DNA of 64,000 nt, from contig CAZZFK010000001.1 in NCBI GenBank assembly GCA_964653455.1, positions 158,179-222,178 on the forward strand, in the 5' to 3' direction. Below, piece by piece: positions 231 to 28,141 of the stretch. Made by a program: the position numbers and the translations under genes. The first letter of the stretch is position 1. Each line of letters begins with the position of its first letter. The DNA is from an uncultured bacterium. Its GTDB lineage: Bacteria > Margulisbacteria > Termititenacia > CAZZFK01. The notes under the pieces were generated by a model. It saw only the letters and a list, made by a program, of their open reading frames with translations, made no database searches and was not told the origin of the DNA.

Positions 231-327
231 CCATTAGGATATCGTAACCCCAAAGGAGCGATTTCATGTGGTAAGCGTTCTTGAAGTATTCTCAGGCAGA
301 CCTTTGCGAGCATAATAGCGGACAGGT

Positions 328-996
328 TCACATGTGAAGATATTTTTTTATATGGACCCCGAACTCTCTTTTGGCGAACCGCCGCAGGTCCTTTAGCTTC
401 GGAAAAGTGCCGAACTCCTCTCGTTCTTCCCGCTTCAACTCTTCCACAGAAACATCCTCGAACCGCTCCCCCACAGGCAGATACACGATATCAAGACCTT
501 TGCGCCCATTGAAAAGATCGAGCACAACACGCCCGTTCTTCATCGCGACAAAATACGGGAAAAGATAATAAGAATCGAATCGATATCGGCCAAAGACCTC
601 CACGGCCTCCGGCTCCTGAACAGCTATAGCTTTATAGTGCAGCAGTTCCAACGGATAGCTCGTATGCCCGTAAACCGCCCGGACGTTCTGGACCGGCAAT
701 TCCCTGAGGTCCCTGGTAATGATCGAGATCATCAGGATACCATTTCCCTTGAGCAGCAAGTGTTCCTCGATATGTTGTCCAAAAGAAAGGTCATAGAGGA
801 TAATCCGAGGTAAGCCCACGGCTCCCGGCCGCTTTTTGAGACGTATAGCTTCATTATAGAAGCGGGAGGTCATGATAGAAGCCGCATCCCTTCGCGGGAT
901 ACGCTCACCACCCTGCATAAGGAAGAACACTGCAGAACATACACAGAACACTGTGAGCATCGATAGTATCAGTACTACCCATCGCATACGCGTCAT
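328..996 (-). CDS. hypothetical membrane-anchored protein
   Basis: 222-aa ORF; N-terminal hydrophobic stretch WVVLILSMLTVFCVCSAVFFL looks like a single membrane anchor; no catalytic motif recognised. Confidence 0.5.
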   Translation of the reverse strand: MTRMRWVVLILSMLTVFCVCSAVFFLMQGGERIPRRDAASIMTSRFYNEAIRLKKRPGAVGLPRIILYDLSFGQHIEEHLLLKGNGILMISIITRDLRELPVQNVRAVYGHTSYPLELLHYKAIAVQEPEAVEVFGRYRFDSYYLFPYFVAMKNGRVVLDLFNGRKGLDIVYLPVGERFEDVSVEELKREEREEFGTFPKLKDLRRFAKREFGVHIKKYLHM

Positions 997-1085
997 GTAC
1001 AGCTCCTTGCCTTCATATGTAGAATACCATACATCCTGTGAATTCAGGCTTCACCTCTTACGATAGATGTGTAAGAGGCGGACAT

Positions 1086-2147: not shown

Positions 2148-2171
2148 ATCTGCGGATCGGACCGTGCCGCA

Positions 2172-3233
2172 TCACCAATCCACAGAAGATGGCAGCCCCG
2201 CATACCCGCGGAGCATTTCTTCCACGATCCCGTCACGCAAGGCCCCGTTACCGATACGCACCGATCGCGGGGCTATCGTCTCATACAACACCTTGAACGT
2301 GATCAAGGGAATAAGAAAAGCATCAGCATTATCGAACTGGGAACGACCCAGCCCCTCTACAGCATCATAGGACATGCCTCGCACGGTCTCCAGTAATCCC
2401 AGAAGCTCTTGCTCGCCGACCGTGACTTCCCGCGCCGCCCTCTTGCCGAAATCCGAAAAGAACAGTCCCTGGACCTTCCAAAATGAACCGCCGGTCATTA
2501 TCAGATCCTTGTTCAAGAGAGCGTTATTCTTTTGAAGCGCATGAAAAGCGGTAAAAGACCTGAAAATGGCCTCTATCTTATCAAGCCCTTCCTGATATGC
2601 CGCACGCATATCTGGAAGAAAGTCCCGAACATGTTGAACACCGTACGGCTGGAACAAGAACAGCTCGTCCGCACGTCCTCCGGCCAGAAAGCGCTCCTCA
2701 TGCGACACATATGAACACTGTACACTGGCCCCGCCCATCTCCACGACGATACTTTCGCGCAAATGACCTGCGGTCTTTGATATGACGCCTGCCACTCCGT
2801 AATAGGCCTCTTCTTCATGGGAAAGCACATGCAGGGCGACCGGCCATCCTTTCTTCCCGGCATAGGTCTCATAGGCACGACGAAAAGCGTTGTGGCCGTT
2901 CTCCTCCGCTTCCCGCACAGCGGCAGTTGCCACGACCTTGATATGGGAGCTCGGTATCTGTAATTCCTTCAATTGTTCGAACCAGCCGTCCACGCTCCGC
3001 ATCGTCATATCTATCTTCCGGGGATCATGCACGTTGCCGCCGCGGCCTAATCGGATCTCTTTATTGAACTCGCCGGCACGCTGCCTGCCATGAACGTCGA
3101 AGATGACGACCTTCACATTGTTCGAGCCGATATCGATGACGCTGAAAAGATCGGCCGGAGCAATATGCTCACGATCGGTCGCGATAGTATGTACCAAGTT
3201 CCTGTGCGCTATCATTTTTGTATCGAATATCAT
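2172..3233 (-). CDS. Ppx/GppA-family phosphatase (exopolyphosphatase / pppGpp phosphohydrolase family)
   Basis: N-terminal VIDIGSNNVKVVIF matches the Ppx/GppA actin-fold motif (D.GSNS...I); 353 aa is typical for the family. Confidence 0.7.
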   Translation of the reverse strand: MIFDTKMIAHRNLVHTIATDREHIAPADLFSVIDIGSNNVKVVIFDVHGRQRAGEFNKEIRLGRGGNVHDPRKIDMTMRSVDGWFEQLKELQIPSSHIKVVATAAVREAEENGHNAFRRAYETYAGKKGWPVALHVLSHEEEAYYGVAGVISKTAGHLRESIVVEMGGASVQCSYVSHEERFLAGGRADELFLFQPYGVQHVRDFLPDMRAAYQEGLDKIEAIFRSFTAFHALQKNNALLNKDLIMTGGSFWKVQGLFFSDFGKRAAREVTVGEQELLGLLETVRGMSYDAVEGLGRSQFDNADAFLIPLITFKVLYETIAPRSVRIGNGALRDGIVEEMLRGYAGLPSSVDW

Positions 3234-3305
3234 ACCATTCTCTCTCTTTGTTCAACGACCGGCATCCGTACGCGGAACATGCCGCCGTGAACGGCAGGGG
3301 ATACC

Positions 3306-4811
3306 TCACACCTCAATATCTATCTCTGCAAAGTTCAGCTTCAGCGGAGGCACGCCGACCCCCTGCTCACTGAACGTACGACATATATATGCATACGCCT
3401 GTGTGACCGACAGTTTGCGGAATTCATGCAGGTCGAACTTTTCCCAGACCACATTAAGGTCATACACCTGTTCCCCCGGGACGGACACCAGCCTCATCGT
3501 ACCCGTCCCAATATCATTGATGAACAGACCCCTCCTGTTGGAAACCACCTCGATCGCAGAGTTCAAGAGCTGCATCAGCCTGCTCTCCCCGAAGAACAAT
3601 ACCGTATATCGGATAAAGGCTTCCAGGTCCTGCTCCGGCAACACCCGCTCCCCGTGATAAAAATCGCTCATACTGGTGTTCCGGGGAAGACGGGACATAT
3701 CGAACGTCCCGTATTGTGAACTCAACCGCTCAAGGTACGCATCCATGAAGGAGTAGGTCAACCCTGCATATTTATCTATACAATCGAACACCACTCTTCT
3801 GCCTAAATGGGCATCAAAAAGCCGATCGACTTTTCGTCGTTCTTCATCCGAACGTGCGCGAGGTCCGGCACAGATGAACCGGGCTTGCATACGAAGCTTG
3901 TGCTCGATCGCTGTGAGCTGTTCCTGAAGAAAATCCCTGATCACACGACGATATTCCGCAGGCAGTCCGGCACGGTCCCAGACCGCACCATCATTTATTT
4001 CCGCAACGACAATGGCCATATCTCCCGGCAGCGGAAAATATCTTTCATATACATCGGACAGAACCATATCGAGCGGACTCTCGTCAGCTGCTATTCGCTC
4101 AAGGACCTCATGAAAACGTTCGAGAGAAAAATATCTCACAGCATGTTCACTGCTGAATATATGCATGAGCTCAGACTCCTGCACATGCCTTTTGATCCAC
4201 TGTGCATCACGCTCTTCCTGAGTATCCTCAAGACAAGCAACGATATCGAACGTCTTTTCACCGGAACGTTCATCACGGACCATCCAGGGGGACAGGTCCA
4301 TCGGAAGCGGCTTGGACCAGGTAAGGACCTCGAAGAGGAGCTTTGAGATATACTGCTCCGCTTCTTTTTCAGGCATCCGTCCCTCAACTATCTGCCATGC
4401 TTTTTCCGAGGTATGAAAAGTGTCATACAAACGTTCCATTGAATTATCGTACGGTCCCTGGGCACGCCATTCCTGATAGCTCGGGCCAGGGATAGTGGAG
4501 AACTTTTCCCAGTGCTCGAAAGCCCGCCTGTACTTGGCCTCGCTGCTCTCCGGATAGCACTGAAAGACCTCCCGGTACAAGGGGTCCTTTCTATCCGTAA
4601 AATTCACCTTTTTAAGGGATTGAAGGAACCGTCCGACCGGGATCTCCGTGACGCCGTTACCTTCCCGATACATCGAACGGATCATTTCCGCACGGGCCGG
4701 CCGGTACTCTGTTGTCAGATAGTTATTCTCAACATACCACTTGAACTTCTCCGCGAACGTCGGTTGGACATTGGTATCTTCGGTCGGTGCACTGATACAC
4801 TTAATGAACAT
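3306..4811 (-). CDS. hypothetical protein (501 aa)
   Basis: Long uninterrupted ORF, co-directional with the neighbouring Ppx gene; no family motif recognised by eye. Confidence 0.55.
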   Translation of the reverse strand: MFIKCISAPTEDTNVQPTFAEKFKWYVENNYLTTEYRPARAEMIRSMYREGNGVTEIPVGRFLQSLKKVNFTDRKDPLYREVFQCYPESSEAKYRRAFEHWEKFSTIPGPSYQEWRAQGPYDNSMERLYDTFHTSEKAWQIVEGRMPEKEAEQYISKLLFEVLTWSKPLPMDLSPWMVRDERSGEKTFDIVACLEDTQEERDAQWIKRHVQESELMHIFSSEHAVRYFSLERFHEVLERIAADESPLDMVLSDVYERYFPLPGDMAIVVAEINDGAVWDRAGLPAEYRRVIRDFLQEQLTAIEHKLRMQARFICAGPRARSDEERRKVDRLFDAHLGRRVVFDCIDKYAGLTYSFMDAYLERLSSQYGTFDMSRLPRNTSMSDFYHGERVLPEQDLEAFIRYTVLFFGESRLMQLLNSAIEVVSNRRGLFINDIGTGTMRLVSVPGEQVYDLNVVWEKFDLHEFRKLSVTQAYAYICRTFSEQGVGVPPLKLNFAEIDIEV

Positions 4812-4939
4812 ATTGTTCCTCCGGCTGTATATCTATCGTTCCCCAGTATGACTTATTTCACTTGTTCATACCCCGCTAGCCAAAAAAGCCCACTATGTAG
4901 TAAAGTAACACACAATCATCAAAAAAAGAGGGATGTATC

Positions 4940-5500
4940 ATGAGAAGCGCACAAGATTGTAAGCCGGGGCAGATCGTAAAGATGAACGGACAGCTGTTCA
5001 CGGTGGTCTATTGGAACCCGTACAAAAAAGGCGATCGCGGCGGCATCATCGTCGACCTGAAGCTCAGGAACATTGAGACCGGGGCTACGGTCATTCTTGC
5101 TCCCCGGGCCCAAGACATGTTCGATGACGTGGTCCTTGACCGGAAAAAAGCGACCTATTCCTACCACGACGGCGACCTGTACGTGTTCCTGGATTCGGAG
5201 ACGTTCGACCAGATCCACCTCTCCGGTGAAGCTATCGGAGCGAACCTGCCGTTCCTGAAAGAGAACATGGAGGTCGATATTTATTTTCACGAAGAAAAGG
5301 CCGTATCCGTCGAATTCCCGGTCTATGTCGAGGCAGAGATCACCTATACCGAGAACGCCGTCCGCGGGGATTCCTCAGGCAAGGTCATGAAAAAAGCGAC
5401 CCTGGCAGGCGGCCATGAGATCGACGTTCCGGGCTACTGCAATATCGGGGACAAGATCAAGATCGATACCCGTACGCAGACTTTCGCCGAACGCGCATAG
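4940..5500 (+). CDS. efp: elongation factor P
   Basis: 186 aa; N-terminal KPGQIVKMNGQLFTVV and C-terminal GHEIDVPGYCNIGDKIKIDTRT follow the EF-P family pattern (three-domain length, C-terminal GDKIK.DTR); followed by an intrinsic terminator. Confidence 0.9.
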   Translation: MRSAQDCKPGQIVKMNGQLFTVVYWNPYKKGDRGGIIVDLKLRNIETGATVILAPRAQDMFDDVVLDRKKATYSYHDGDLYVFLDSETFDQIHLSGEAIGANLPFLKENMEVDIYFHEEKAVSVEFPVYVEAEITYTENAVRGDSSGKVMKKATLAGGHEIDVPGYCNIGDKIKIDTRTQTFAERA

Positions 5501-5525
5501 AACTCAGGGCACAGAACGCTAAAAA

Positions 5526-5551
5526 GACAGGCCTACCGCCTGTCTTTTTTT
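5526..5551 (+). terminator. rho-independent terminator downstream of efp
   Basis: Stem GACAGGC / GCCTGTC with 5-nt loop, followed by a run of seven T; preceded by AAAAA so it could work in both directions. Confidence 0.7.
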
Positions 5552-5660
5552 ATGCTCGGGAACTTCCGTACAATAGCACTGTACAATGACCGTGTGGGGG
5601 AAATACCACCAAGATCTCATTACTGACCCATACAGAGGGGAGGACCTGAACAAAGGTCTC

Positions 5661-5700
5661 GCATGTCCTTTGTTAGAGCACGGGAGATGCAGTTTTTTTT
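5661..5700 (+). terminator. second terminator-like hairpin plus T8 in the leader of the next gene (possible attenuator or sRNA 3' end)
   Basis: Imperfect stem GCATGTCC / GGAGATGC followed by AG and TTTTTTTT (5693-5700), about 28 nt upstream of the ATG at 5728. Confidence 0.3.
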
Positions 5701-5727
5701 GAAGCGACCAATAGAGAGGGGGAATAT

Positions 5728-5952
5728 ATGAGCACCATCAATTCAACAGCATCGGTCAACAATAACGAGAAAGAAGCGGCCGCCACCAATACCGCACATA
5801 ACTCCGTCGAGGAAGTCGTGAACAGCGCCGTCGGCACTTCCGCCATCGATACTGACGGGAGCAAGACCCTGAACAAGAAATTATCATCACAGCTCCTGGA
5901 CGAGGTCATCGATCCGAAGACCGGATATACCTGGTCGAACCCGATACGCTGA
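5728..5952 (+). CDS. small hypothetical protein (74 aa, Ser/Thr/Asn/Ala-rich, acidic)
   Basis: ATG preceded by AGAGGGGG at 6-13 nt; low-complexity composition, no signal peptide apparent. Confidence 0.4.
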   Translation: MSTINSTASVNNNEKEAAATNTAHNSVEEVVNSAVGTSAIDTDGSKTLNKKLSSQLLDEVIDPKTGYTWSNPIR

Positions 5953-5974
5953 GGACAGACTATCCCTTTAAGTT

Positions 5975-6622
5975 ATGCCCCATGACGTTTACAATACCGC
6001 CATGAACGAAAGCTCATTCAACATGAGGGCAAAGAACTGGGACAGGAACACGGTCCTCCGCGACCTTGCAGGTACCGTCGCGAAACATATAAAGATGTCC
6101 GCCGCTCCCGGAGGACACGCTATCGATCTCGGGTGCGGGACCGGCCTACTCGGACTGGAACTGATGGACCATTTCACGGACATCGTTTTTGCCGATTCCT
6201 CGGATGGTATGCTCGAAGAAGTTCGCAACAAGCTTGCACATCACAAAAAAGGACCTGCGTGCCGCACGCTCAGGATCGACCTCGATCATGACGAGCTTCC
6301 CGGGACCTACGATTGTATCTTTTCCCAAATGTCTCTCCACCACATCAATGATACTGAAAGGTTCATCGCACATATCGTCCCTCACCTTACCCCGCAGGGC
6401 ATCGTATGCATCGCTGATGTGGTCGCTGAGGACGGATCGTTCCATCAAGGGACCACCGTGCCGCACAATGGCTTCAATCCCTCCTCGCTCCGTGCTCTGT
6501 TCGGGCGGGCGGGGCTGCATACATCCGTCATCGAACCGGTATTCACCATCACAAAACCGGCCCCGGACACGGTAAAGGATTTTCCGATATTCCTGATGAT
6601 CGGTAAAAGAACGACCCCTTAA
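5975..6622 (+). CDS. class I SAM-dependent methyltransferase
   Basis: IDLGCGTGLLGLEL is the Rossmann SAM-binding motif I; acidic motif II (IVFADSSDGM) follows at the expected spacing. Confidence 0.75.
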   Translation: MPHDVYNTAMNESSFNMRAKNWDRNTVLRDLAGTVAKHIKMSAAPGGHAIDLGCGTGLLGLELMDHFTDIVFADSSDGMLEEVRNKLAHHKKGPACRTLRIDLDHDELPGTYDCIFSQMSLHHINDTERFIAHIVPHLTPQGIVCIADVVAEDGSFHQGTTVPHNGFNPSSLRALFGRAGLHTSVIEPVFTITKPAPDTVKDFPIFLMIGKRTTP

Positions 6623-8067
6623 GACGATCTTTGAAGTGCGTGAACGATATCGACCATAGCTTTGGTATCAAGCCCACAGTATTCCTTCAAATGAGCATAG
6701 ACCTCGGCACGGTCAGCATGGTCGTCAGTATACGTGACCCGGTAGTATTCGTGGCTTGCTGTTTCTCCGTCCCCGATCGCCATCCCTTCATATGACGTAC
6801 CGACCAATGCGGGCAGAACATATTTTATCGATGCTGAGCCCTGCTGAAGAGGGTTATAGTACTCAAAGTTCCTGAACGGAACGAGAAGATCAACGATCCT
6901 ACCTATGATAGTACGGACCTGATCGGCATATGCGGGGAATTGTTTCGCACAGGCGTTCAGGATCATACCTTCGAACTGCCTGTTGTAGACCACCACGCTC
7001 CCCGTGTTCCCGACATGCGCACAGACCGACCGGATGAACGTTCCACGCGGGTCCGCAGTCCCTTCTGAAAGGAATGACAGATGTTCGAGCGGTGCCCCAG
7101 GGGAACGTTCGATGTGCAACGAATACTGGAACGGGACATGCTCATGAGGATGCGTACCCTCGAACAAAGGGACCGCAGGAGCGAACGACTCAAAATCAAG
7201 ATAATGAACGGGATACTTCAGCAGGGATAAAAAAGAGCGTATCGCGGACACATCGGTATGGACCGTTCCAGACAATGTCGTCCGGACCTGGATATGTTGT
7301 CTTTCATTAAGATGATATCCCGGCGGAAGCTGATCGAAGGTCATGATGCCCTTATGTATGAGCTCAAAGGCCTGATATTTCCGCAGACCATAGAGATCGA
7401 GCACGCTGTTCTCCGGGATATGCGCAAAACAACGGGACATCAACGGACAATGATGCGGTGTCGTACATTGTTCGCCGATAACGACCGTCGGTGCCTCCGC
7501 AGAACGATGTACTAGGCGCACGCGGGAGATGTCCCCGGCGAGATGTATTTTCCGTTCCCGGACAACGGAGGTCACATCCTCTTTCATAAAAAGCACTGCA
7601 GGCCTCAGCTCACCGCGACGTACGTAGTCCGGGTTCAGGTACAAAATGGAACACGTATTGATACGTAATCCCGCACCTTCATAGACATACAACTGGAACG
7701 CGACATCGGTATAGTGTTCATCCTTGACTGCCGTCGTGGATTTCACCTCCACCACATCCCATGAACCGTCATGGCCCGGGAGCAGAATATCCGCACGTGC
7801 AAAACAGCCGTCATACATGAATCCCGCCTCGAAGAGCGGTGTTCTGTTATCGGGTACACGGGTCAGTACGGCGGGATCGCTCACCGTTCCCTCAAGAACA
7901 ACACCATCAGGATACAATGCTCGCGCTAAGAGCCCGACACTCTTCCCTGCGTCCATACGTGCCCGCTGTGATACAGAAAGCGGTTCAAGGTCATGCGGCG
8001 CATGTTGTTTTTTCCAGGCATACAGAGGACATTGCAGGCCGATGAGCAGATCGGATTTGGTGAACAT
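6619..8067 (-). CDS. two-domain nuclease: N-terminal Cas4/RecB-like PD-(D/E)XK domain with Cys cluster, C-terminal DEDD-like 3'-5' exonuclease-like domain
   Basis: N-terminal Cys (GLQCPLY), DVVEVKS (ExK of PD-(D/E)XK) and C.5.C.5.C (CTTPHHCPLMSRC) match the Cas4-like layout; C-terminal HYLDFESF, YNRQFEGMIL and HADRAE resemble exonuclease motifs I, II and III. Confidence 0.55.
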   Translation of the reverse strand: MFTKSDLLIGLQCPLYAWKKQHAPHDLEPLSVSQRARMDAGKSVGLLARALYPDGVVLEGTVSDPAVLTRVPDNRTPLFEAGFMYDGCFARADILLPGHDGSWDVVEVKSTTAVKDEHYTDVAFQLYVYEGAGLRINTCSILYLNPDYVRRGELRPAVLFMKEDVTSVVRERKIHLAGDISRVRLVHRSAEAPTVVIGEQCTTPHHCPLMSRCFAHIPENSVLDLYGLRKYQAFELIHKGIMTFDQLPPGYHLNERQHIQVRTTLSGTVHTDVSAIRSFLSLLKYPVHYLDFESFAPAVPLFEGTHPHEHVPFQYSLHIERSPGAPLEHLSFLSEGTADPRGTFIRSVCAHVGNTGSVVVYNRQFEGMILNACAKQFPAYADQVRTIIGRIVDLLVPFRNFEYYNPLQQGSASIKYVLPALVGTSYEGMAIGDGETASHEYYRVTYTDDHADRAEVYAHLKEYCGLDTKAMVDIVHALQRSS

Positions 8068-8126
8068 GTGTTCATTGTACCAAGGATAGAGTACGAAGTA
8101 CTATGAGCTCCTGTACGTACCGGGGC

Positions 8127-9713
8127 TCAAACGACCAGGTCCCGCTCCTTACACTCCGACGTCCGGTAGAAGACCAACTTCGGATAGAGCTCCCGCACAT
8201 GATGCAGCTCCCACTGACCTTCAAAGAAGTATACGAGCCGCTCATCAGTATCGAGCGCTATTTTCATCACACGTTCCCGCTTCACTTTTTCTATCTCCGC
8301 ACTGTCACCGCCGATCCAATAAGCGAACGCTCTGGGATACTCGGCATATTCACAATCTGCACCGTATTCGCTCTTGAGCCGGTATTGCACGACCTCGAAC
8401 TGCAGGACACCGACAGCACCAAGAAGGAGGGAATTATCAAAGATCATCTTAAAGAGCTGCACCGCTCCTTCTTCAGAGAGCTGTCGAAGCCCGGTCTGCA
8501 ATTGCTTGGTCTTATTGGTATTGCGATTGATGACACGACGGAACGTTTCAGGAGCAAAGCTGGGGATGCCCGTATAATGCAATGTTTCACCTTCCGTGAA
8601 GGTATCCCCGATCTTAATGAGACCAGTATCGTGTATCCCGATGATATCCCCGGGATAGGCCTCTTCGATGATCGTCCGAGTCTGCGCCATGAACGTGATC
8701 GGGTCCGCGATCTTCATCTCACGGTCCAGACGGATGTTCTTTACTTTCATGCCGCGAGTGAATTTTCCGGAATTGATGCGCATAAAGGCCACTCGATCCC
8801 TGTGACGCGGGTTCATGTTGGCATGGATCTTGAAAACGAGCCCGGTCAATGCAGGCTCCTGCGGCTCAACTGTCCGCTCTTCTGCGGGACTTGGCTGCGG
8901 CATCGGAGCCAGTTTGACGATATGTTCAAGCAGCTCATAGACGCCGAAATTATTGATGGCGCTCCCGAAGAACACCGGTGTCATTTTCCCGTCCAGGTAT
9001 TGTGCCAGGTCGAACTTCTCGAGCGCTCCCTCGATCATCTCCAGGTCCTGGAGCAGTTTATCTGTATAGAGCGGTTCGACATCAGGGATGGACCGGGGGT
9101 CGCCGACCGTTGCGGTCGTGAACGTTTTGGCCCCTGCCTTGAACGAAAGGAACGCCTTGTCCGCGATGTTATAGACACCTTTGAACGTCTTGCCCATACT
9201 GATCGGCCAACTCAGCGGGATCGCCTTGATGCTCAAGCTTTGTTCGATATCATCGAGCAGATCGAACGGGTCGCGCCCTTCCCGATCGAGCTTATTGATG
9301 AACGTTATGACCGGGATATTACGCAGCCGACAGACATCCATCAGCTTTTTTGTCCTGTCCTCGACGCCTTTCACGGAATCAATGACCATCAGGACCGAAT
9401 CGACGGCCGTGAGCGTGCGATAGGTATCTTCACTGAAATCCGCATGTCCCGGCGTGTCCAGAAGGTTTATGACCACGCCTTTATGCTCGAAACACATGAC
9501 CGAGGTGGCGATAGACACACCGCGTTCGCGCTCGATCTCCATCCAGTCGGACGTCGTATGCCGGTCCGTCTTGCGTGATTTTATCGCGCCGGCCTGCTGG
9601 ATAGCACCGCCAAAGAGCAAAAGCTTTTCCGTGATCGTCGTTTTTCCCGCATCCGGATGACTGATGATCGCAAAGGTCCTGCGTATCGATATTTCGTGCT
9701 GAAGCTCTGCCAT
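8127..9713 (-). CDS. prfC: peptide chain release factor 3
   Basis: N-terminal RRTFAIISHPDAGKTTITEKLLLFGGAIQ.AG and DTPGHADFSEDTYRTLTAVDSVLMVID are near-canonical RF3 GTPase sequences; 528 aa. Confidence 0.95.
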   Translation of the reverse strand: MAELQHEISIRRTFAIISHPDAGKTTITEKLLLFGGAIQQAGAIKSRKTDRHTTSDWMEIERERGVSIATSVMCFEHKGVVINLLDTPGHADFSEDTYRTLTAVDSVLMVIDSVKGVEDRTKKLMDVCRLRNIPVITFINKLDREGRDPFDLLDDIEQSLSIKAIPLSWPISMGKTFKGVYNIADKAFLSFKAGAKTFTTATVGDPRSIPDVEPLYTDKLLQDLEMIEGALEKFDLAQYLDGKMTPVFFGSAINNFGVYELLEHIVKLAPMPQPSPAEERTVEPQEPALTGLVFKIHANMNPRHRDRVAFMRINSGKFTRGMKVKNIRLDREMKIADPITFMAQTRTIIEEAYPGDIIGIHDTGLIKIGDTFTEGETLHYTGIPSFAPETFRRVINRNTNKTKQLQTGLRQLSEEGAVQLFKMIFDNSLLLGAVGVLQFEVVQYRLKSEYGADCEYAEYPRAFAYWIGGDSAEIEKVKRERVMKIALDTDERLVYFFEGQWELHHVRELYPKLVFYRTSECKERDLVV

Positions 9714-9860
9714 ATATCCTCACCTGTTCTGTTTTTTTATATCTTATGCGCTGCGCTGTGATATGTAAATGGAGCCGCATATGTATTTTTCATGTACGAT
9801 TTATTTTATTTTTCCGATATTTTTTATCCGATATATTTTCTGAAAAAAATAAAAAAACTC

Positions 9861-9888
9861 TGGTCATTATTATTTTTTTTGCTATAAT
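9861..9888 (+). promoter_or_regulatory. sigma-70-type promoter with extended -10 (TGcTATAAT)
   Basis: TATAAT at 9883-9888 preceded by TGC (extended -10); TGGTCA 16 nt upstream as a weak -35; sits in a very AT-rich intergenic region about 30 nt upstream of the micropeptide ATG. Confidence 0.45.
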
Positions 9889-9920
9889 GAATTCATCAAA
9901 TGACGAAAGGGGTGTCCAAC

Positions 9921-9989
9921 ATGGCAGTTAAAAAGAAAAAGAAAGTTGTGAAGAAAAAGAAGGCAGTAAAGAAAAAGAAGAAAAGATAG
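9921..9989 (+). CDS. 22-residue lysine-rich micropeptide (MAVKKKKKVVKKKKAVKKKKKR)
   Basis: ATG 9921 with AAAGGGG 8 nt upstream, TAG stop at 9987-9989; below the ORF track size cutoff; promoter directly upstream and inverted repeat directly downstream. Confidence 0.35.
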   Translation: MAVKKKKKVVKKKKAVKKKKKR

Positions 9990-10001
9990 TTTCATTGCAC
10001 C

Positions 10002-10038
10002 GCCCTGTTCCTCTCCGTTCATCGGTCCGGAACAGGGC
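10002..10038. other. perfect 10-bp inverted repeat (GCCCTGTTCC ... GGAACAGGGC) with 17-nt loop
   Basis: Read directly; 12 nt after the micropeptide stop; no T-run follows, so this is a terminator-like or regulatory stem-loop of uncertain role. Confidence 0.4.
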
Positions 10039-10177
10039 CAACATCCTCATCGTTAGAACATATCCCCATAAATATACTCTTATTTTTCGATACATTTTAT
10101 AGGCATATCGTGTCGATATACATATGTACCCAAGACCGGTCCGCACAAAGTTCGAACAACGAAAGGAGGAACGCTCT

Positions 10178-10325
10178 CGTGAAAGCACAGGACAAATATC
10201 ACATTTATCTGGGGATCGTGCTTGTGATCATTTCCGCACTGACCTGTATCCAGACGAACACCTGTATCGCACAGAACTCACATACCACCCTGACAGCCAT
10301 GAACTCTTCATCGGTCATTGAATGA
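10178..10325 (+). CDS. small hydrophobic protein (about 49 aa from a GTG start)
   Basis: AAAGGAGG 9 nt upstream of GTG 10178; one hydrophobic helix (IYLGIVLVIISALT); the track lists a longer 71-aa version from ATG 10110 that lacks a Shine-Dalgarno. Confidence 0.3.
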
Positions 10326-10387
10326 AAAACACGGACCAGAACGAACGCCATCATCGAATATGATCGTCCGCGGCCCATCTTCCGGAG

Positions 10388-13246
10388 CTACTTCCCTCGC
10401 CGTACCATTGCATGCAACGATTGATACCAGGCCTTCCCCGTCCGCGTTCTTTTCATCTCAAGGTCTTTCACGACATTTTCCATCCATGGCCCGTACGCGA
10501 ACACGACCCGCTTAAAGATGTTCAGTACCTTATGCGCTTTACGTATCGGCAATTGTTCAGCGATATATTGTTCGTACTTTTCACGCTGATGATACGGTTC
10601 CAGGAAGATATTCAGGTCATGCACACTGTCTTTTGCTCGCTCCAGTATCTTTTTGAGCGCTGTCCTGCTCCGCGGATTTTCCCAGAGAATATCAACGATA
10701 TCGAGCAATCCTGTCATCCTCCTCCGCCCTGTCGCTTCATCATCGCCCTGGAGTTGCGTCTCAGGAACGATCTCTTTGAGCGTCGCATAATTGAGCTCAT
10801 ATTCTTTGCGGGACTTGACCGAACCCTCGATATATCCGCCTACGAGCTCGGACGCGATCTTTCCCATGAGCACCACAGATAGAGCGACCCCTGCCCAACC
10901 AAAAAGATAGGAAAGACCGAACGCGATCGGCCCCGCGATAAAACTTCTCATAAGATTCCGTCGCTTTACGTCCTGTGTGAAACCTCTCAATGAATTATGC
11001 GCATAGATGTACCCCCCATTGAGGGCCGCGAGGGCCACATAGTTCAGGAACCGCTTCGCCATCTCAACAGCAGCATGCTGCTGCGTTCGCAAATGCTCCG
11101 CGATATGTCCATGATACGCGGAGACGTACGCGATCATCTGGTCCATGCTCTGCTCGAGCAGAGCACCGTCAGTCGTGAGCACCATGGACTGAAAATAATG
11201 GTCCGCGATACGGAGCACCGGTATAGAAAGAAAACTGAAGAACATGGAGACCGCGGCATTATGCGGATCAAAATCCTTCATACGCCAATTAACCGGGTTC
11301 CAGCCGTTCTTAGCGACCAGATCCACGACCATATTACGTCCGTACGTGATAAAGAACCAGAACGCATGCACAGCTTCACCGTACGAGAACGCTGCCTTTC
11401 CACAATAGACCGCATATGAGACCGCAGTGCCTAACGTCATCACGATCACGTCTTTGACATGCATATTGAGATCGAACACATAGTCCCGCATCCGGCCGAA
11501 CGGGCCTGTGCGCAGGACATCTGACCGCAGCTGCAATTTCGCCTTCTCGCTCTTGCCCAAAGAGAGCACTACACCATGATCAGAGGACGATCTCACGGAC
11601 ACATGCCCGAGCAGACCGGTCAGTGCATCACGAGGACCCATTCTGAGACCGATCATATCAACGGCGTTCACACGAAGAAGTCGTCTCCAGCGGCGGACCT
11701 TCCTGCGGTCGGTGTACCCCATCCCAGGGACCTTATGGTTATGCCCGTCCGAATTACTGCCGATACGGGCCCGCAAGGGGACCTTCCTGAAATGCTCGGA
11801 GGCTTTCGCCAATTGATAGCGTCGTATATCCAGTTTTTCCCGCTCGACCAACCGCACGGCTTTCGTGACCTGACCCTCGTTCAAACATTCTCTGATCTTG
11901 TTGAGTAAAAGCATCTGTCGTATCAGCTCTGGTCCGGCCACACGATTATTCCATACTTCGATCGATGAGATATGTTCATGATATGTGGTCATATAGTCCA
12001 CTGCCGCTTCCAGACCATGGATAATGGACCTATTGAGAACAACATGTGCCCGGATCTCCTGACCTTCCTGGGAGACCGCATTGATACGTTCAAGAGCAGT
12101 GAAGGCGGTCTCCGGCAACATGAACCGCATGCTGTCCATCATCTTGAAATAGATACCATCAAAATATTTCTTTCTAAGATACACCTTATCCATGCGTTCA
12201 GGGAGCTTTTTACCGTTAATGAGAAAGAGCGCGGTCAAATGAGCGTGCAGATACCGACCGAGATGGACCTGAAACAACGGTTTCCCCTGGGCATAGGTAT
12301 ATAAATCCTCGAGGTCCAAAGACGGTATCGTGATCTGTTCATAGACCAGGTCGCTGTTCAAGACGGGCAGGACCTCCGCATTGAACCGCTCAATGAGACG
12401 AACGAACAACTGATCACGGGTCTTATTGTTCTTGCGAAGCGCCTGAGCGAACTGCTGCCAGGCTTTATCAGCAAAAAGTGCGTCATAATCCCCTATCGTG
12501 CGACAATGCTCGAACACGACGGTCTGATGATAGTATCGCCCGCCATAACTGACGACATATTCCAGGCCGCAATGGACCGTGATATCCAGGATAGCACCGG
12601 CACATACCACTTCATGAATAGCATCCCTATCCTCGAACGCATCAAATACGATCGTGAGCCCGGACAAGCCTTTGATATACGCGTCCAGAACGAGCTGTGC
12701 AGGCCGTTTGCGATCGATAGAGACATGATCGTCCCATGCGATACGTCCGGTCTTTTCCGGTATCTCGGCCATACCCAGGAGGGCGAGCGCACGGCGTACG
12801 GCAGGAGCTTTACCCGAAAGGGCACGCATGTAACAGTCGACCAGCCGGCATTGCCGTAAGATGTTCCCTTTTGCCTTCACACATTCTTTCATAAGGGCCA
12901 TCAGTACCGGAGGCGTGTTCAGCGGCATTTCCTTGCTGTTATAATTGCGACCTTCCTCCATCAGCCTTTTGAGCGCACGCAACCGCAGGTCAGGATCATT
13001 GGAGCGGATAGCGACATAGAGCAGTGCCATATCAAGGGGCTTTTCATAGACCACCTCTTTGAACCCGCGCACATGCCCTTCGAAGAAGAAATGGATATCG
13101 GCGATATCACGATCCAGTAGTTCGTTCAGCGTACGAACGGTCGCATATATCTCCGGGGAGAACGTGGTCGCGCGGCGCACACGGCCGGAAAATGTCATAT
13201 CCCGGACATGCTCAATGACCGCAGCGGCTACTATCTTGGCGAACAT
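10388..13246 (-). CDS. large uncharacterised protein (952 aa) with predicted transmembrane segments
   Basis: Long ORF; hydrophobic stretches (FIAGPIAFGLSYLFGWAGVALSVVLMG, MFFSFLSIPVL) towards the N-terminal third; no family recognised. Confidence 0.6.
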   Translation of the reverse strand: MFAKIVAAAVIEHVRDMTFSGRVRRATTFSPEIYATVRTLNELLDRDIADIHFFFEGHVRGFKEVVYEKPLDMALLYVAIRSNDPDLRLRALKRLMEEGRNYNSKEMPLNTPPVLMALMKECVKAKGNILRQCRLVDCYMRALSGKAPAVRRALALLGMAEIPEKTGRIAWDDHVSIDRKRPAQLVLDAYIKGLSGLTIVFDAFEDRDAIHEVVCAGAILDITVHCGLEYVVSYGGRYYHQTVVFEHCRTIGDYDALFADKAWQQFAQALRKNNKTRDQLFVRLIERFNAEVLPVLNSDLVYEQITIPSLDLEDLYTYAQGKPLFQVHLGRYLHAHLTALFLINGKKLPERMDKVYLRKKYFDGIYFKMMDSMRFMLPETAFTALERINAVSQEGQEIRAHVVLNRSIIHGLEAAVDYMTTYHEHISSIEVWNNRVAGPELIRQMLLLNKIRECLNEGQVTKAVRLVEREKLDIRRYQLAKASEHFRKVPLRARIGSNSDGHNHKVPGMGYTDRRKVRRWRRLLRVNAVDMIGLRMGPRDALTGLLGHVSVRSSSDHGVVLSLGKSEKAKLQLRSDVLRTGPFGRMRDYVFDLNMHVKDVIVMTLGTAVSYAVYCGKAAFSYGEAVHAFWFFITYGRNMVVDLVAKNGWNPVNWRMKDFDPHNAAVSMFFSFLSIPVLRIADHYFQSMVLTTDGALLEQSMDQMIAYVSAYHGHIAEHLRTQQHAAVEMAKRFLNYVALAALNGGYIYAHNSLRGFTQDVKRRNLMRSFIAGPIAFGLSYLFGWAGVALSVVLMGKIASELVGGYIEGSVKSRKEYELNYATLKEIVPETQLQGDDEATGRRRMTGLLDIVDILWENPRSRTALKKILERAKDSVHDLNIFLEPYHQREKYEQYIAEQLPIRKAHKVLNIFKRVVFAYGPWMENVVKDLEMKRTRTGKAWYQSLHAMVRRGK

Positions 13247-13394
13247 CTCTGCTCCCTTATTATGGGCGATACATTACCTTCCGGCACACCTGTGCCGGTA
13301 CTATGTTAATATCGTACAGATATCGTTGGAAATTCAGCGGATCAATCCTATGCCGTGGCCGGACGTACGACCGCGCTTGCGCTACCTCGCCAGC

Positions 13395-15521
13395 TCAATG
13401 TACGGGACTGGGGTCAATAGTGCTGTCGGCAGGGTATGTGTTATGGACCCGATATGACGAATACCCCTTGGTCCCTCTCATTTTATTCGCTCGTCGTTCA
13501 TTTTCCAGGATACGGGTAGCTTCTTGAATATCATGTGCAGCATCCTTGAGTACCATCAAGGAATCCTTTTGTATCTGATAGAGCACGTGCCGGGACCTTT
13601 TAAAAAGGGAGGGATATACATGATGCTCGATCGCCCATCGGTTCAGCTGCCTCAGCCGCGCAAGTTCATACTGCTCCCATCGGGCAGGGAAACGGTCCTG
13701 TTCATCCTTCTCGAGCCGACCGCGGACATATCCATACAATTCTGCCGCAAGACGGTCATGCATGACATGTTCTTCCGTTATACCAAGGAGAGAAAAGAGG
13801 TCGTTACGCGCTATCAGTTCATTGAGATTATCCCACGCAGAAAGCCCTGTTCGGGCGGATAATGACGGATACGTCCGCAATAAGAACTCCAATACCTCCT
13901 TAGCGTCCTGATTGCTGATATCCTCAATCCCGTATTTACCCAGGTCCATATCCCACGTCAGGAAATGCGGCCCGAGCCTAAAGGTCCTTTCTTGTTCCTC
14001 GATCCATTTTTTCTGTAAAGCTTGTACGGCCGCATCGATATCTCCGTTACAGGCATCAAATATCCTGCCGTACGTATCCATCGTATTCCTGTCATCGTCG
14101 ATCGAGGCCAGATACCGCAACGCCTCCGTGCGTTCTTGAACATCATGTTGTGCCCCATCACGACCGTCATGCCGAACGGCGAACTTCTTATCCACCTCAG
14201 CCAGAAGATCATCAAGGCTCGCCAACGGGGCATATGTAGGTTCAGGCTTTTTTTCTGACGGACGGTGAACAGGACCATCTTTCGAACTTCCGTCTTTCCG
14301 GTCACCTGAACCCTCTTCCCGAATGACCGCTGCGACACGCATCTTTTTTTTCTGCTCTTCAAGGAGCCTATCCCCTATCTGTTTATGTCTGTCCGATGTT
14401 CTCTGCATGCCGTCCTTGAGCCACTGCCGCACCTCCGCACTGACCGCATCAAAGATACCGCTCGCGGCCATATCCGCGTCGTTCGGCAAGAGATATATCT
14501 GTGTCCCGTTCTGATACCGCAAGAGCTTCTGACCGTTCTCCTGTAACATATGCCGATAGAACAGGACCGAGCGCTCGGTAGTGCCTATATCTTTCGCGAA
14601 TTGGCGCACACACTGGTACATGGTGCGCACCTGACCGCCCATATAACGGCCGCGCAGATATTTATCGAAATCATCAGGATATAATCTGGAGATACTTTCC
14701 GCCCTCTTCAGGTCCTTCATGATCTGCTGCGATATCTTTGCGGGAGCGGACGCATCGAGGTCCAGGCCTTTTGTCGAGAACACTTCTTTTTCCGTATACC
14801 CGCTCTTGGGGTTCTTTTGCAGCCCGAGCTCCAGAACGGACACTAACTTGACCGCATCGCCCACGGATAACGCGAGAGGATCATCAGCCTCTTCCTGCGG
14901 CCACATTTCTTCCAAGCTCTTGGCCTCTTCGGAACGAACGCCCAGTTTTTTAAGCGCATTGGCCTTGCGCTCGTCCTCACAAAATATCAATCTCACGACA
15001 TTCTGCTCTGCAGGATAACGGCATATATCCGACATATGATGTACGAACAAGAACTCAAAATAATACCTGTAGACCCCTGTTACCCCATGGGACTTAAAGA
15101 ACCGTTCTTTATCGGCCGAGAACACATATTCCTCGAACAGTTCTTTCAGGTCCCAGCGAAAAACATCGTCCAGGCAGACCTTCCGTGTCTTTCCCCCGCG
15201 CACTATCACCACCTCATCAAGAGGTGCGTGAGTATGAAATACCGAAGCGAGCAAATCCTTTTCTTTGATGCCTACGGGATGGGGGGACGTTCTGATGTGT
15301 TTCATCAATTCTTCAAAGATCTGTGTGCGCTCTTTTTCTTCCTGTATCTCTTTGAGGTCCAGTTTCTTGACGCCCGCTTTTGTATCCGTAACAAGCGCTC
15401 CGCCGGAAGCCGACCAGTCCAGCAGTTCTTTGCCTTTATCGTCCGATATCATTTTTTTATGCCACATGGCCATACCCCTTCTTCCTATATAGATATCGTA
15501 TTTTTTGGAAAAAACTCCCAT
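13395..15521 (-). CDS. uncharacterised protein, paralog A (708 aa), UBA-like motif
   Basis: Shares with the next gene the N-terminus MG..(D)(I/T)YI.R...M..WH.K..SD, YRYYFEFLFVHH, a GL..D/E..AP.I helix and a Lys/Arg/Pro-rich linker; YGRIFDACNGDIDAAVQAL resembles the UBA / EF-Ts N-terminal fold. Confidence 0.65.
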   Translation of the reverse strand: MGVFSKKYDIYIGRRGMAMWHKKMISDDKGKELLDWSASGGALVTDTKAGVKKLDLKEIQEEKERTQIFEELMKHIRTSPHPVGIKEKDLLASVFHTHAPLDEVVIVRGGKTRKVCLDDVFRWDLKELFEEYVFSADKERFFKSHGVTGVYRYYFEFLFVHHMSDICRYPAEQNVVRLIFCEDERKANALKKLGVRSEEAKSLEEMWPQEEADDPLALSVGDAVKLVSVLELGLQKNPKSGYTEKEVFSTKGLDLDASAPAKISQQIMKDLKRAESISRLYPDDFDKYLRGRYMGGQVRTMYQCVRQFAKDIGTTERSVLFYRHMLQENGQKLLRYQNGTQIYLLPNDADMAASGIFDAVSAEVRQWLKDGMQRTSDRHKQIGDRLLEEQKKKMRVAAVIREEGSGDRKDGSSKDGPVHRPSEKKPEPTYAPLASLDDLLAEVDKKFAVRHDGRDGAQHDVQERTEALRYLASIDDDRNTMDTYGRIFDACNGDIDAAVQALQKKWIEEQERTFRLGPHFLTWDMDLGKYGIEDISNQDAKEVLEFLLRTYPSLSARTGLSAWDNLNELIARNDLFSLLGITEEHVMHDRLAAELYGYVRGRLEKDEQDRFPARWEQYELARLRQLNRWAIEHHVYPSLFKRSRHVLYQIQKDSLMVLKDAAHDIQEATRILENERRANKMRGTKGYSSYRVHNTYPADSTIDPSPVH

Positions 15522-15582
15522 TTTGAGGGGCTCTGGAGGGTGGTGCCCGGTGTGAAAAATACCGAATAATGCCGGACCTTCG

Positions 15583-17424
15583 TCAGCCGAACATATCCTT
15601 CAGTTCCTGGGCATGTTTCTCATTGATCTCAGCGGCTTTACGTAATAATTCTTTCTTGGCGACCTCGAAGTTGCCTCCGTTCTCTTCCAGGACACTTTTA
15701 CATTGGTCCTTGTCAAAACCGGCCATCATCACTTCACGCAACAGGGTCAACTCGCGAACTTCCTTTGAATAGGATCGGAGCAGCTCGGAACGCCAGAGGA
15801 TATCTTCCTCTTTTTCGTTCAACGGGCGGCCAAGCAACAATATCTTTCTCGCTCGGCCGATACTATTGCCTGAACGTTCATACGCAGAGGAGCACTCATC
15901 CCAGGTCTTTTTCGTTTCATAACAAAGGCTGAAGATATCGTCCTTTATTTGCTGCTCAGCAGTGATCGCCGCACGTTTCAGCGCATCGTGCTTCCTATCC
16001 ACCTCTTCACAGATCTGTTCAAAACTCTTCCGGGGAGGGAATTCCACCGGCACATACTGTTTCCTTTGAGGGACTTCCGCTTTAGGCGACGAGACCTTTT
16101 TTGGCGGGATCACAGGGACAGGCCGTGTCTCAGATTCTCGCTTTCCCCGCATTTCCGTCTCGCGTTGTTTTTGCTTTGCTTCTTCAAGAGCGGCCATTTT
16201 ACGCCCCGCCGCCAATATCTCCTCATGTTCTTCATCGTTCTTCAGCTTCAACCAATCGATGACATCCATGATGCGCCGTTGGTTCACATCGTTCTTGTCT
16301 TTCCGCTGACGATGGAGCTCATCTTTCAGCCCGGACAACGCAGTGGGATTGTTCAGGACGATGTACATTTCGCCCCTGTCCTCATATATGAAGAATTTTA
16401 CGCCGTTATTCAAAAGGAGATACTTGACCGCCTCAATGGCTTTGACCGTGCATCCGAGCTCTTTGGCCAACCTCGATTCTTCTCCGCCATAGTCCTGGTC
16501 CAAAAGTTTTTTAAGGTCCTCAAAACGCTGATATTCATACTTGATCTTTTTGCGCTCATGAATGAGTTTACGTATCTGCGGTGCCGTCTCCCTGTTCAAC
16601 CCAAGAGCATTGAGGAGCGTACGCTCCGTATACCCTAACGGGTCCCTTCTGTTGCCTTTGTTCAATAACCCCAGAAGTTCTTCTTCTTTCTCATGAAATA
16701 TCTGGATCGTATCGATATTCTCGTATTCGAACGTATCATAACCGACCCACAGGGATTCCAGTTGCTGTGCGGCAATGGAATTCTTGCCCAATTTTGCTAC
16801 GGCAGCCTCTACCCTGTCCTGCAGGGAAGGAAGAATGAAGATCTCCCCGTTATGAGCATATCTGATGATCTTGAGCGGATGATTGGCGAACAGATAACTG
16901 AAGTAGTACTTATACTGCTCTTTGATGTTCGAATCGGAAAGGAATCGTCCGATATTGTTCACATATCTGCGGGAAAGCTGGACCATATCTTCGACCGAGA
17001 TATCCATTAAGGGTTTTACCTTGAAATCATTTGGCCCTGCGATCACATTATAGGGGACCTGCGGCACCTTGATAGTGAACGCTGCCGGATATCCGAGGAC
17101 CTCCAGCAAGCGTTTTTCCCGCACACCGAACACGTCCTTTTCCGTGCTTAATTCATGTACGATCTTCTTTCTCAGGTCCTCGAGGGCCCTCTCATCTTTC
17201 AATTCAGCGGGCGTTTTTTTAACTTCCTGTTTAACGTCAAAAGTATCATCCGCAGCGAACAACTGCAGGTCCATACGCAGCTCAATACGCTCGCCATTCT
17301 CTCCGACCGCATATACGGGCGTTCTCAGCCACGCAAGACAATCGGATAATAATTTATTATGCCACACGGACATACCTGTGCACCTCTGTATATAGGTATC
17401 GGAACCTCCTGAAGGTCGTCCCAT
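15583..17424 (-). CDS. uncharacterised protein, paralog B (613 aa), C-terminal UBA-like domain
   Basis: Paralogous to 13395..15521 (YKYYFSYLFANHP, LGCTVKAIEAVKYLLLNNG); C-terminal VMMAGFDKDQCKSVLEENGGNFEVAKKELL fits the UBA consensus (MGF ... NG.(V/F)E.A...LL). Confidence 0.65.
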   Translation of the reverse strand: MGRPSGGSDTYIQRCTGMSVWHNKLLSDCLAWLRTPVYAVGENGERIELRMDLQLFAADDTFDVKQEVKKTPAELKDERALEDLRKKIVHELSTEKDVFGVREKRLLEVLGYPAAFTIKVPQVPYNVIAGPNDFKVKPLMDISVEDMVQLSRRYVNNIGRFLSDSNIKEQYKYYFSYLFANHPLKIIRYAHNGEIFILPSLQDRVEAAVAKLGKNSIAAQQLESLWVGYDTFEYENIDTIQIFHEKEEELLGLLNKGNRRDPLGYTERTLLNALGLNRETAPQIRKLIHERKKIKYEYQRFEDLKKLLDQDYGGEESRLAKELGCTVKAIEAVKYLLLNNGVKFFIYEDRGEMYIVLNNPTALSGLKDELHRQRKDKNDVNQRRIMDVIDWLKLKNDEEHEEILAAGRKMAALEEAKQKQRETEMRGKRESETRPVPVIPPKKVSSPKAEVPQRKQYVPVEFPPRKSFEQICEEVDRKHDALKRAAITAEQQIKDDIFSLCYETKKTWDECSSAYERSGNSIGRARKILLLGRPLNEKEEDILWRSELLRSYSKEVRELTLLREVMMAGFDKDQCKSVLEENGGNFEVAKKELLRKAAEINEKHAQELKDMFG

Positions 17425-17461
17425 TTATTTGAGCTTTTTTAATATGCGGAAAAATGAAAAG

Positions 17462-17498
17462 AATAAAACCCCGGCGATACCTGTATCACTACAGGTAT
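17462..17498 (-). terminator. intrinsic terminator downstream of the PGK-family gene
   Basis: 9-bp perfect stem ATACCTGTA / TACAGGTAT with 4-nt loop; on the minus-strand transcript it is followed by a U-rich tract (plus-strand AATAAAA). Confidence 0.5.
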
Positions 17499-17524
17499 GC
17501 CAGGGCCTATCTTAGCAGTAGCAG

Positions 17525-28092: not shown

Positions 28093-28141
28093 ATATGGAA
28101 TTATTGTAGCATCCGCATGGCACTCCACAACAGGACCCCGG

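Follow-up and report, generated by a model that had tools for sequence, protein, structure and literature searches.

We identified a lysine-rich reading frame of 22 codons, unnoticed by gene annotation, between prfC and the gene for a 952-aa protein in the 64-kb stretch of bacterial DNA analyzed here (called the window below). To judge from its sequence, this micro-ORF is a real feature that appears unusually well equipped for expression, and it is a neat candidate for a small protein. Our preferred reading, which is tentative and to which we give a probability of roughly 0.4, is that it may be a lineage-restricted, stand-alone micro-gene that encodes a polycation with affinity for nucleic acid or ribosomes; its transcription, its translation, and the binding mode of its product are things that we infer. 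The features of the locus and the genes around it are collected in Table 1.

Table 1. Features of the micro-ORF locus and its surroundings (positions in the window)
Feature	Position	Strand	Basis
A-tract block TGAAAAAAATAAAAAAACTC, directly 5' of the -35 hexamer	9841-9860	+	Sequence read
Sigma-70-type promoter-like site, TGGTCA-16-TGcTATAAT, extended -10	9861-9888	+	Consensus scan
Shine-Dalgarno (SD) AAAGGGGTG, 6 nt 5' of ATG	9906-9914	+	Motif and spacing as in the window's genes
22-codon ORF encoding MAVKKKKKVVKKKKAVKKKKKR, TAG stop	9921-9989	+	Direct read of sequence
18-nt (6-codon) tandem repeat, 2.7 copies, 83% matches, unit (A/V)VKKKK	9932-9980	+	Tandem Repeats Finder
Stem-loop GCCCTGTTCC-TCT-CCG-TTCAT-CGG-TCC-GGAACAGGGC	10002-10038	+	Folding and inverted repeat
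SD AAAGGAGG of the 48-codon ORF	10162-10169		
Possible second cistron, 48-codon ORF, GTG start, one hydrophobic helix	10179-10325	+	Codon usage, SD
18-nt duplication within the 48-codon ORF	10242-10277		Tandem Repeats Finder
Gene for the 952-aa protein, convergent	10388-13246	-	
prfC (RF3), divergent from the micro-ORF unit	8127-9713	-	
Predicted prfC promoter	9769-9741		
Canonical bidirectional terminator, after efp	5521-5549		

The frame opens with an ATG at 9921 to 9923 and closes with a TAG at 9987 to 9989. Its product has 14 lysines and 1 arginine among 22 residues (K+R = 68%), laid out as M-[AVKKKK]K-[VVKKKK]-[AVKKKK]KR, and the edges of the A-rich tract in the DNA are also the edges of the micro-ORF. 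The first-pass annotation had placed a lysine-rich micro-ORF of this length here and had expected standard annotation to miss it. The frame is indeed present at that place, and it was overlooked: the assemblies carry no call for it, and exact look-up of the peptide in forms of 22, 25, and 29 aa returned no match in a collection of 15 billion proteins. The micro-peptide has never been called by any pipeline. Common gene finders have a floor of ~90 nt, under which the 69 nt of the micro-ORF fall. The 674 bp that separate prfC from the 952-aa gene do not differ by a single base among three independent assemblies, made from three sequencing runs, so the lengths of the A-tract and of its homopolymers are not assembly artefacts.

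The phasing of the lysine codons is beyond chance: when the bases of the tract were shuffled 200,000 times, no shuffle held 14 in-phase lysine codons, and the highest number was 13. Across the six frames of the 64 kb, a density of at least 8 lysine codons per 22 codons is found in the tract of the micro-ORF and nowhere else, and no comparable lysine-rich micro-ORF was found in ~1.26 Mb comprising 170 loci from other bacteria. The sole noise in the scan of those loci came from arginine-rich, off-frame windows of GC-rich genomes.

Much of the tract consists of the tandem repeat, and the manner in which the repeat units differ is informative. Set in register, they vary in six columns, five of which are third codon positions, while the remaining one is a conservative exchange of Ala and Val; our own binomial estimate for this third-position bias, made from the sequence, is P ~ 0.02. 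Lysine is encoded by six AAA and eight AAG codons, against a genome usage of 48.5% and 51.5%, respectively. AAA codons are kept from standing side by side, and the longest A-run in the micro-ORF is 5; A-runs of at most this length occur in 2.6% of synonymous permutations and in ~6% of draws at genome codon usage. These are small-sample signals that point the same way, and they suggest that the triplet phase at least, or the reading frame itself, has been maintained. The repeat and codon signals alone are no proof of translation, because an (A-R-N)n RNA motif also frees third positions.

Upstream of the frame, an extended -10 promoter of the micro-ORF's own and a Shine-Dalgarno sequence had been proposed, and sites of both kinds were found. 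The promoter-like site is made up of TGGTCA at 9861 to 9866, a spacer of 16 nt, TG at 9880 to 9881, and TATAAT at 9883 to 9888, and in the consensus scan it scored 10 of 12 consensus positions plus the TG extension. It ranks first among the 28 candidates in positions 1 to 20000 of the window and is the sole candidate with TG; promoter-like sites overall scarcely exceed chance (28 seen versus 21.8 ± 4.8 expected). Transcription is predicted to start near 9895, which would leave a 5' leader of ~26 nt. The A-tract block that adjoins the -35 hexamer is possibly a UP-like element, by analogy with strong sigma-70 promoters. The SD stands at a spacing typical of the host, with comparable sequences at the same spacing before two bona fide genes, namely, aaaggggt (gtaaaaggggtttctataATG) for the gene at 39012 to 40766 and aagggtga (cagaagggtgatccgcaATG) for the gene at 49531 to 51210.

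Downstream of the frame, the perfect 10-bp inverted repeat described in the first-pass annotation was recovered: its arms, GCCCTGTTCC at 10002 to 10011 and GGAACAGGGC at 10029 to 10038, are complementary at 10 of 10 positions and enclose an inner CCG/CGG pairing. The hairpin that they form begins 12 nt past the stop codon and has an energy of -24.3 kcal/mol (z = -6.2), with none of 200 shuffles being as stable. In the centroid fold of the 148-nt predicted transcript (9895 to 10042), pairing is confined to this 3' hairpin and leaves the SD, the start codon, and the micro-ORF single-stranded. No U-tract lies 3' of the stem, and the hairpin did not score as an intrinsic terminator.

Three other roles for the hairpin were considered and set aside. 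A repeated (REP-like) element was rejected, the hairpin being single-copy in the 64-kb window. As a minus-strand terminator for the operon of the 952-aa protein, composed of the hairpin and a pyrimidine tract, the arrangement would be noncanonical, with the U-rich stretch starting 14 nt after the stem; the predicted prfC promoter sits beyond the A-rich tract. A dnaX-type -1 frameshift at the A AAA AAG sites was judged by the spacing between slippery site and hairpin in dnaX, and the hairpin, 24 nt past the last such site, is too far away.

The surroundings of the locus are those of an ordinary chromosome, with pgk, pfk, a PPDK-like gene, c-di-GMP signaling proteins, and an efflux system in the rest of the window. 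Beyond prfC, on the side from which the micro-ORF unit diverges, lie the genes for a DUF2779 protein, a methyltransferase, and efp. On the other side, an AT-rich spacer of 140 nt separates the unit from an orphan 48-codon ORF, which is followed by the convergent gene for the 952-aa protein; the latter belongs to no Pfam or NCBIfam family. The 48-codon ORF shares the reading frame of the micro-ORF and scores 0.24 bit/codon for codon usage (true genes, 0.32 ± 0.15; off-frames, -0.10 ± 0.31), and a homologue search with its 48-aa product found none. Its membership in the unit of the micro-ORF is uncertain. The gene finder's actual call is an antisense ORF of 57 aa, which scores 0.10 bit/codon and among 1.84 billion representative proteins matches itself alone.

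The RF3 encoded by prfC is nearest to that of "Candidatus Margulisbacteria" (61 to 69% identical), and a search of 5.8 billion proteins yielded closer sequences that are 80%, 79%, and 75% identical. A lysine-rich micro-ORF was found in none of the prfC loci sampled, of which 80 came from genomes and 80 from metagenomes; the nearest of them, from Margulisbacteria, are 63 to 69% identical. In the two contigs whose RF3 sequences are 80% and 75% identical (L164 and L165), the neighbors of prfC differ on both sides and the micro-ORF is absent, the spacers upstream of prfC containing neither a micro-ORF nor an A/G tract. Homologues of the 952-aa neighbor are 32 to 36% identical, one of them being from Rectinemataceae, and have a convergent ABC transporter at the position of the micro-ORF locus. 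The peptide itself matched no family in Pfam, NCBIfam, PHROGs, or PADLOC, and phmmer against all PDB chains returned nothing at E ≤ 10. A mobile-element origin of the region was rejected, blastn against plasmids and phages having given no match.

The absence of the locus from the nearest relatives, together with the orphan status of the entire 674-bp region, speaks for an incidental or very young, functionless ORF that arose by 18-nt slippage duplication beside a chance promoter and SD. An ORF of this kind might be transcribed or even translated, without effect. We regard this explanation as unlikely in itself and as nearly as likely as a stand-alone micro-gene. The micro-ORF is a simple repeat, and the neighboring 48-codon ORF also has a duplication of 18 nt, which suggests that the region is slippage-prone; the frequency of promoter-like sites, scarcely above chance, also fits. 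Arguing against an accident are the four independent signals (promoter, SD, ATG, and hairpin) that stand in the correct order and at the correct spacing, the confinement of variation among the repeat units nearly always to third codon positions, and the avoidance of long A-runs.

If the micro-ORF is instead a stand-alone micro-gene, the nearest models for its product would be small basic proteins of the ribosome, and it had been pointed out earlier that proteins of this size and basicity are ribosomal in some lineages. One of them is bS22, a 30S protein found in Actinobacteria, Bacteroidetes, and Borrelia and an analogue of eL41 and mS38, which forms a bent helix in a pocket of the 16S rRNA made by h2, h27, h44, and h45 of the 30S subunit. 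The peptide was aligned with reference sequences of eL41, bTHX, bS22, and bL37. Those for bS22 (from Borrelia, Flavobacterium, and M. smegmatis) and for bL37 of M. smegmatis were taken from a published study (PMC10618245), in which bS22 is a small basic ribosomal protein of 30 to 33 aa; the Borrelia protein (31 aa, GUG start, 61% K+R) is unannotated and a candidate essential gene, and mycobacterial bL37 has 24 aa, with both bS22 and bL37 being unannotated in some genomes.

By Smith-Waterman alignment, the peptide scored 34 to 40 against the three bS22 sequences, compared with shuffled-peptide means of 36 to 41, and a fraction of 0.59 to 0.73 of the shuffles scored at least as high. For bL37, eL41, and bTHX, these fractions were 0.93, 0.93, and 0.995, respectively. 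A control alignment of the Borrelia and Flavobacterium bS22 proteins reached a score of 106, where shuffles averaged 44.6. Because the alignments of the peptide are at the level of shuffles and the PDB search was empty, the peptide is by sequence not a member of the bS22, bL37, eL41, or bTHX families. The earlier remark is therefore sound as a general statement, as bS22 and bL37 illustrate, and finds no support in the case of this peptide, which resembles the known basic ribosomal micro-proteins no better than its shuffled versions do.

What remains is a likeness of kind. The peptide and bS22 are both very short, single-segment, and extremely basic, and both come from tiny genes that pipelines miss and that lie outside ribosomal-protein operons (PMC10618245). 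The micro-peptide differs in its length (22 aa versus 30 to 33 aa), in being lysine-only where bS22 combines R, K, and H, and in being a simple repeat three times over, and the bS22 motifs PxG+K+K, THK+RKKR, and NRHKKK or GSVIKKRRKRM are absent from it. With bL37 (24 aa), eL41 (25 aa), and bTHX (~26 aa), it has size and charge density in common, and the gene for bL37 also stands alone, apart from ribosomal operons (PMC10618245); these three proteins differ in being arginine-rich and nonrepetitive, and they have no sequence relationship to the micro-peptide.

Another likeness is to the H1-like tails, rich in Lys and Ala, of nucleic-acid-binding proteins, in which two small residues are likewise followed by four to five lysines in a periodic arrangement. 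A viral scan with the pattern KKKK-xx-KKKK-xx-KKKK gave a single match, and this was not a micro-ORF: it was the C-terminal tail (...AAKKKKAAKKKKAAKKKKKKK) of a 421-aa phage protein (locus L170). The pattern is thus the tail of a large protein in the phage, whereas here it is the whole product, equipped with a promoter, SD, start, and stop of its own. Because it forms such a tail, the KKKK-xx motif is plausible as a nucleic-acid-binding module when attached to a protein.

An antimicrobial role, which the first-pass annotation had offered as another possibility, finds no support at this locus. The peptide shows neither a leader nor a signal peptide, and no gene for a transporter or for immunity lies nearby; the neighbors are prfC and the genes for the DUF2779 and 952-aa proteins, and the PADLOC and PHROGs searches gave no match. 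Its helical hydrophobic moment (0.27) is ordinary, with 33% of shuffles being as high or higher, and an amphipathic-helix design was rejected, the moment not being above that of shuffles.

As a stand-alone micro-gene, the locus would be transcribed into a monocistronic RNA of ~145 nt, the 3' end of which would be set or protected by the hairpin; at 12 nt past the stop, the stem-loop would lie just outside the footprint of a terminating ribosome. Since the RNA is predicted to be unstructured except for the 3' hairpin, it would be expected to translate efficiently. The product would be a cytoplasmic polycation of 22 residues with a net charge of ~+15 and without a hydrophobic core or signal sequence. 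Its charge may let it bind a polyanion electrostatically, with rRNA and ribosomes or else DNA as the most plausible partners, in a mode that we model on the unrelated micro-proteins bS22, bL37, and eL41. The ORF itself arose when an 18-nt unit for (A/V)VKKKK was triplicated in tandem, and nearly all later changes in the copies have been synonymous.

For the micro-gene we count the top-ranked promoter, the host-like SD, the open fold, the hairpin z score of -6.2, the lysine phasing, the third-position variation of the repeat, the short A-runs, the coincidence of the ORF with the edges of the tract, the identity of the three assemblies, and the precedent of tiny basic ribosomal proteins overlooked by annotation (PMC10618245). 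Against it we count the lack of a homologue and of conserved synteny, both among the relatives with RF3 sequences 75 to 80% identical and around the 952-aa homologues, and the lack of a family match and of any similarity to known micro-proteins beyond composition. The hairpin also has no U-tract, although the genome has a canonical terminator elsewhere. In addition, the lysine-only, repeat-derived make-up is the look to be expected of a young or incidental ORF, and an (A-R-N)n RNA motif would likewise be free to vary at third positions. A bolder form of the micro-gene reading, in which the ORF encodes an abundantly expressed, de novo, repeat-born poly-lysine protein of 22 residues with a structural role, as a polycation, in the ribosome or nucleoid, seems to us quite improbable.

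A run of a single codon type is the mark of amino-acid leader peptides, such as those of the his, trp, leu, and thr attenuators, and the micro-ORF might on this ground be a leader ORF whose lysine-codon translation controls, via the hairpin, the 48-codon membrane ORF downstream, the peptide itself being irrelevant. We consider this rather unlikely. Like the leaders of the his, trp, leu, thr, and ilv attenuators, the micro-ORF is short, repeats the codons of a single amino acid (14 of 22 codons here are Lys), and is followed by a stable hairpin. The interval between the hairpin and the 48-codon ORF contains no promoter-like site, transcription may pass the hairpin because it lacks a U-tract, and the downstream ORF has a strong SD of its own (AAAGGAGG) and a coding-like score. 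Furthermore, positions 9966 to 9981, at the 3' end of the micro-ORF, are 81% complementary to positions 10078 to 10093.

The locus differs from the attenuators, however, in having neither a terminator U-tract nor an antiterminator, and thus no terminator/antiterminator pair, and in having no cognate amino-acid operon. No alternative pairing that would compete for the arms of the hairpin was found, and the leader as a whole folds no more stably than its shuffles do (z = -0.84). The downstream gene is an orphan of uncertain reality that is unrelated to lysine, and the arrangement is absent from the 170 other bacterial loci examined. We know of no established class of lysine leader peptides.

The same tract could also be read at the RNA level. 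The distal face of Hfq binds A-R-N repeats (PMC8121710, PMC9890229), and all of the Lys and Arg codons here are A-R-N triplets, with variable third positions that suit N; there are 15 such triplets in the micro-ORF, in blocks of 5, 4, and 6. The ~145-nt RNA might therefore be a noncoding or dual-function small RNA that offers an A-R-N platform, for example as an Hfq sponge acting on the distal face, or that pairs with pyrimidine-rich targets, and its promoter and 3' stem-loop are the usual anatomy of a small RNA. In its long in-phase A-R-N run on a short, independently transcribed RNA, it is like the Hfq-binding RNAs of the CrcZ type. It differs from them in its full set of translation signals, whose SD and ATG coincide with the beginning of the tract and whose stop coincides with its end, and in the absence of a U-rich 3' tail for the proximal face of Hfq. 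The A-R-N run is moreover broken by GCA, GTT, GTG, and GTA codons, and Rfam gave no family at gathering scores and noise alone at E ≤ 10. We regard a small RNA as very improbable.

Least credible of all is read-through of the TAG, perhaps stimulated by the hairpin, or a recent nonsense mutation, by which a lysine-rich head would be fused to the membrane ORF in a protein of ~134 aa. In its favor, no further stop interrupts the frame for 111 codons beyond the TAG, past the hairpin and up to a TGA at 10325; a stop followed 12 nt on by a strong hairpin resembles read-through signals; and it is common for a lysine-rich cytoplasmic head to precede a transmembrane helix. Against it, the 63-codon spacer scores as noncoding (-0.13 versus +0.32 ± 0.15 bit/codon), TAG is an ordinary stop here, used by 12 of 45 genes, open stretches of 111 codons or more also follow the stop in 4 of 45 genes, the fusion product has no Pfam match and no significant tblastn match in plasmids, and the 48-aa ORF carries its own strong SD. 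A 47-aa protein with a lysine-rich head and a transmembrane segment adjoins panC in the contig of a relative (L081, 838 to 981).

Returning to the micro-gene, we regard the locus as a well-formed curiosity rather than a discovery, the function of which we infer. If the peptide is made, few known products of bacterial genes would be as short or as highly charged, and its gene would be a clean case of a micro-gene that was born from an 18-nt tandem repeat and is invisible to annotation pipelines. The ribosomal proteins bS22, bL37, and bL38 were recognized in recent ribosome structures solely from density, and their cases indicate that such peptides can be essential yet unannotated. Long A-runs are known to cause ribosome sliding (PMC4552401), and the alternation of AAA and AAG in the micro-ORF avoids them, the locus being a natural test case for bacterial translation of long lysine runs. 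Were the reading as a de novo poly-lysine protein true, one uncultured lineage near the Margulisbacteria would have convergently invented a bS22/eL41-like micro-protein that is evolutionarily independent of those already known.

A minus-strand ORF of 57 aa, called as a gene downstream of the lysine-rich micro-ORF, overlaps a plus-strand ORF of 48 codons that has a strong Shine-Dalgarno sequence (AAAGGAGG), encodes a transmembrane-like helix and has the better codon usage (0.24 bit/codon, versus 0.10 for the minus-strand ORF). Both are orphans, and together these features indicate that the annotation at 10179-10378 may be on the wrong strand.

The micro-ORF and the 48-codon ORF share a reading frame, with a single TAG, an ordinary stop within the window, separating them. 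The frame stays open for 111 codons after this TAG, passing through the hairpin that follows the micro-ORF, and the codon usage of the spacer between the two ORFs resembles that of noncoding DNA. The 48-codon ORF contains a tandem duplication of 18 nt that keeps the frame (TCIQTN/TCIAQN). Its period is that of the repeat from which the micro-ORF is built, which suggests that the region around both ORFs is prone to slippage. A 14-nt tandem repeat is located between the divergent promoters of prfC, the release factor 3 gene, and the micro-ORF. The spacer downstream of the hairpin has further copies of CGATA(T/C) near positions 10088, 10105 (as the reverse complement), and 10113. This could be an operator motif, although TATCCGATAT shows no enrichment across the window (8 matches versus 5.6 expected).

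Positions and strands of features in the window
Feature	Position	Strand	Setting
Perfect 12-bp hairpin, A5 and T5 flanks (AAAAAGACAGGC/GCCTGTCTTTTT)	5521-5549		directly after efp
14-nt tandem repeat, TATTTTATCCGATA x 2.4	9802-9839		
Frame from micro-ORF TAG to end of 48-codon ORF	9987-10325	+	
48-codon ORF	10179-10325	+	
57-aa ORF	10205-10378	-	gene finder's call
18-nt tandem duplication	10242-10277	+	
952-aa protein	10388-13246	-	
ABC-ATPase	27358-28128	-	
18-nt palindrome, 94% (TTAGTTAACATATGTTAA / TTTACATATGTTAACTAA)	28150-28188		between two divergent genes
Outer-membrane efflux	28621-29928	+	
Low-GC blocks	38000-42000, 52000-54000		

A Margulisbacteria-like metagenome contig (L081) carries a 47-aa ORF (838-981, +) whose product combines a lysine-rich head with a single transmembrane helix (MIKKKIKKRKKMKKLKSVKEKVLNNFGLKILSIILALVLWLIARINS). 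This ORF is flanked by a zinc-finger protein on one side and on the other by a 283-aa gene that looked panC-like by eye; its product has no sequence similarity to the window peptide.

The neighboring 952-aa protein belongs to no family in Pfam, NCBIfam, PADLOC, or PHROGs, and its homologues number only about 13 among 5.8 billion proteins (24-36% identity; one from Rectinemataceae). It is conserved but rare.

Elsewhere in the window, the hairpin after efp has the canonical form of an intrinsic terminator and works in both directions; it shows that U-tract terminators are in use in the host genome. The palindrome between the ABC-ATPase and outer-membrane efflux genes is likely an operator. The GC content falls to 39-41% in two blocks, compared with about 51%. 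These blocks may be islands gained by horizontal transfer; among their products are a TPR protein, a WYL-domain protein, and a family-2 glycosyltransferase.
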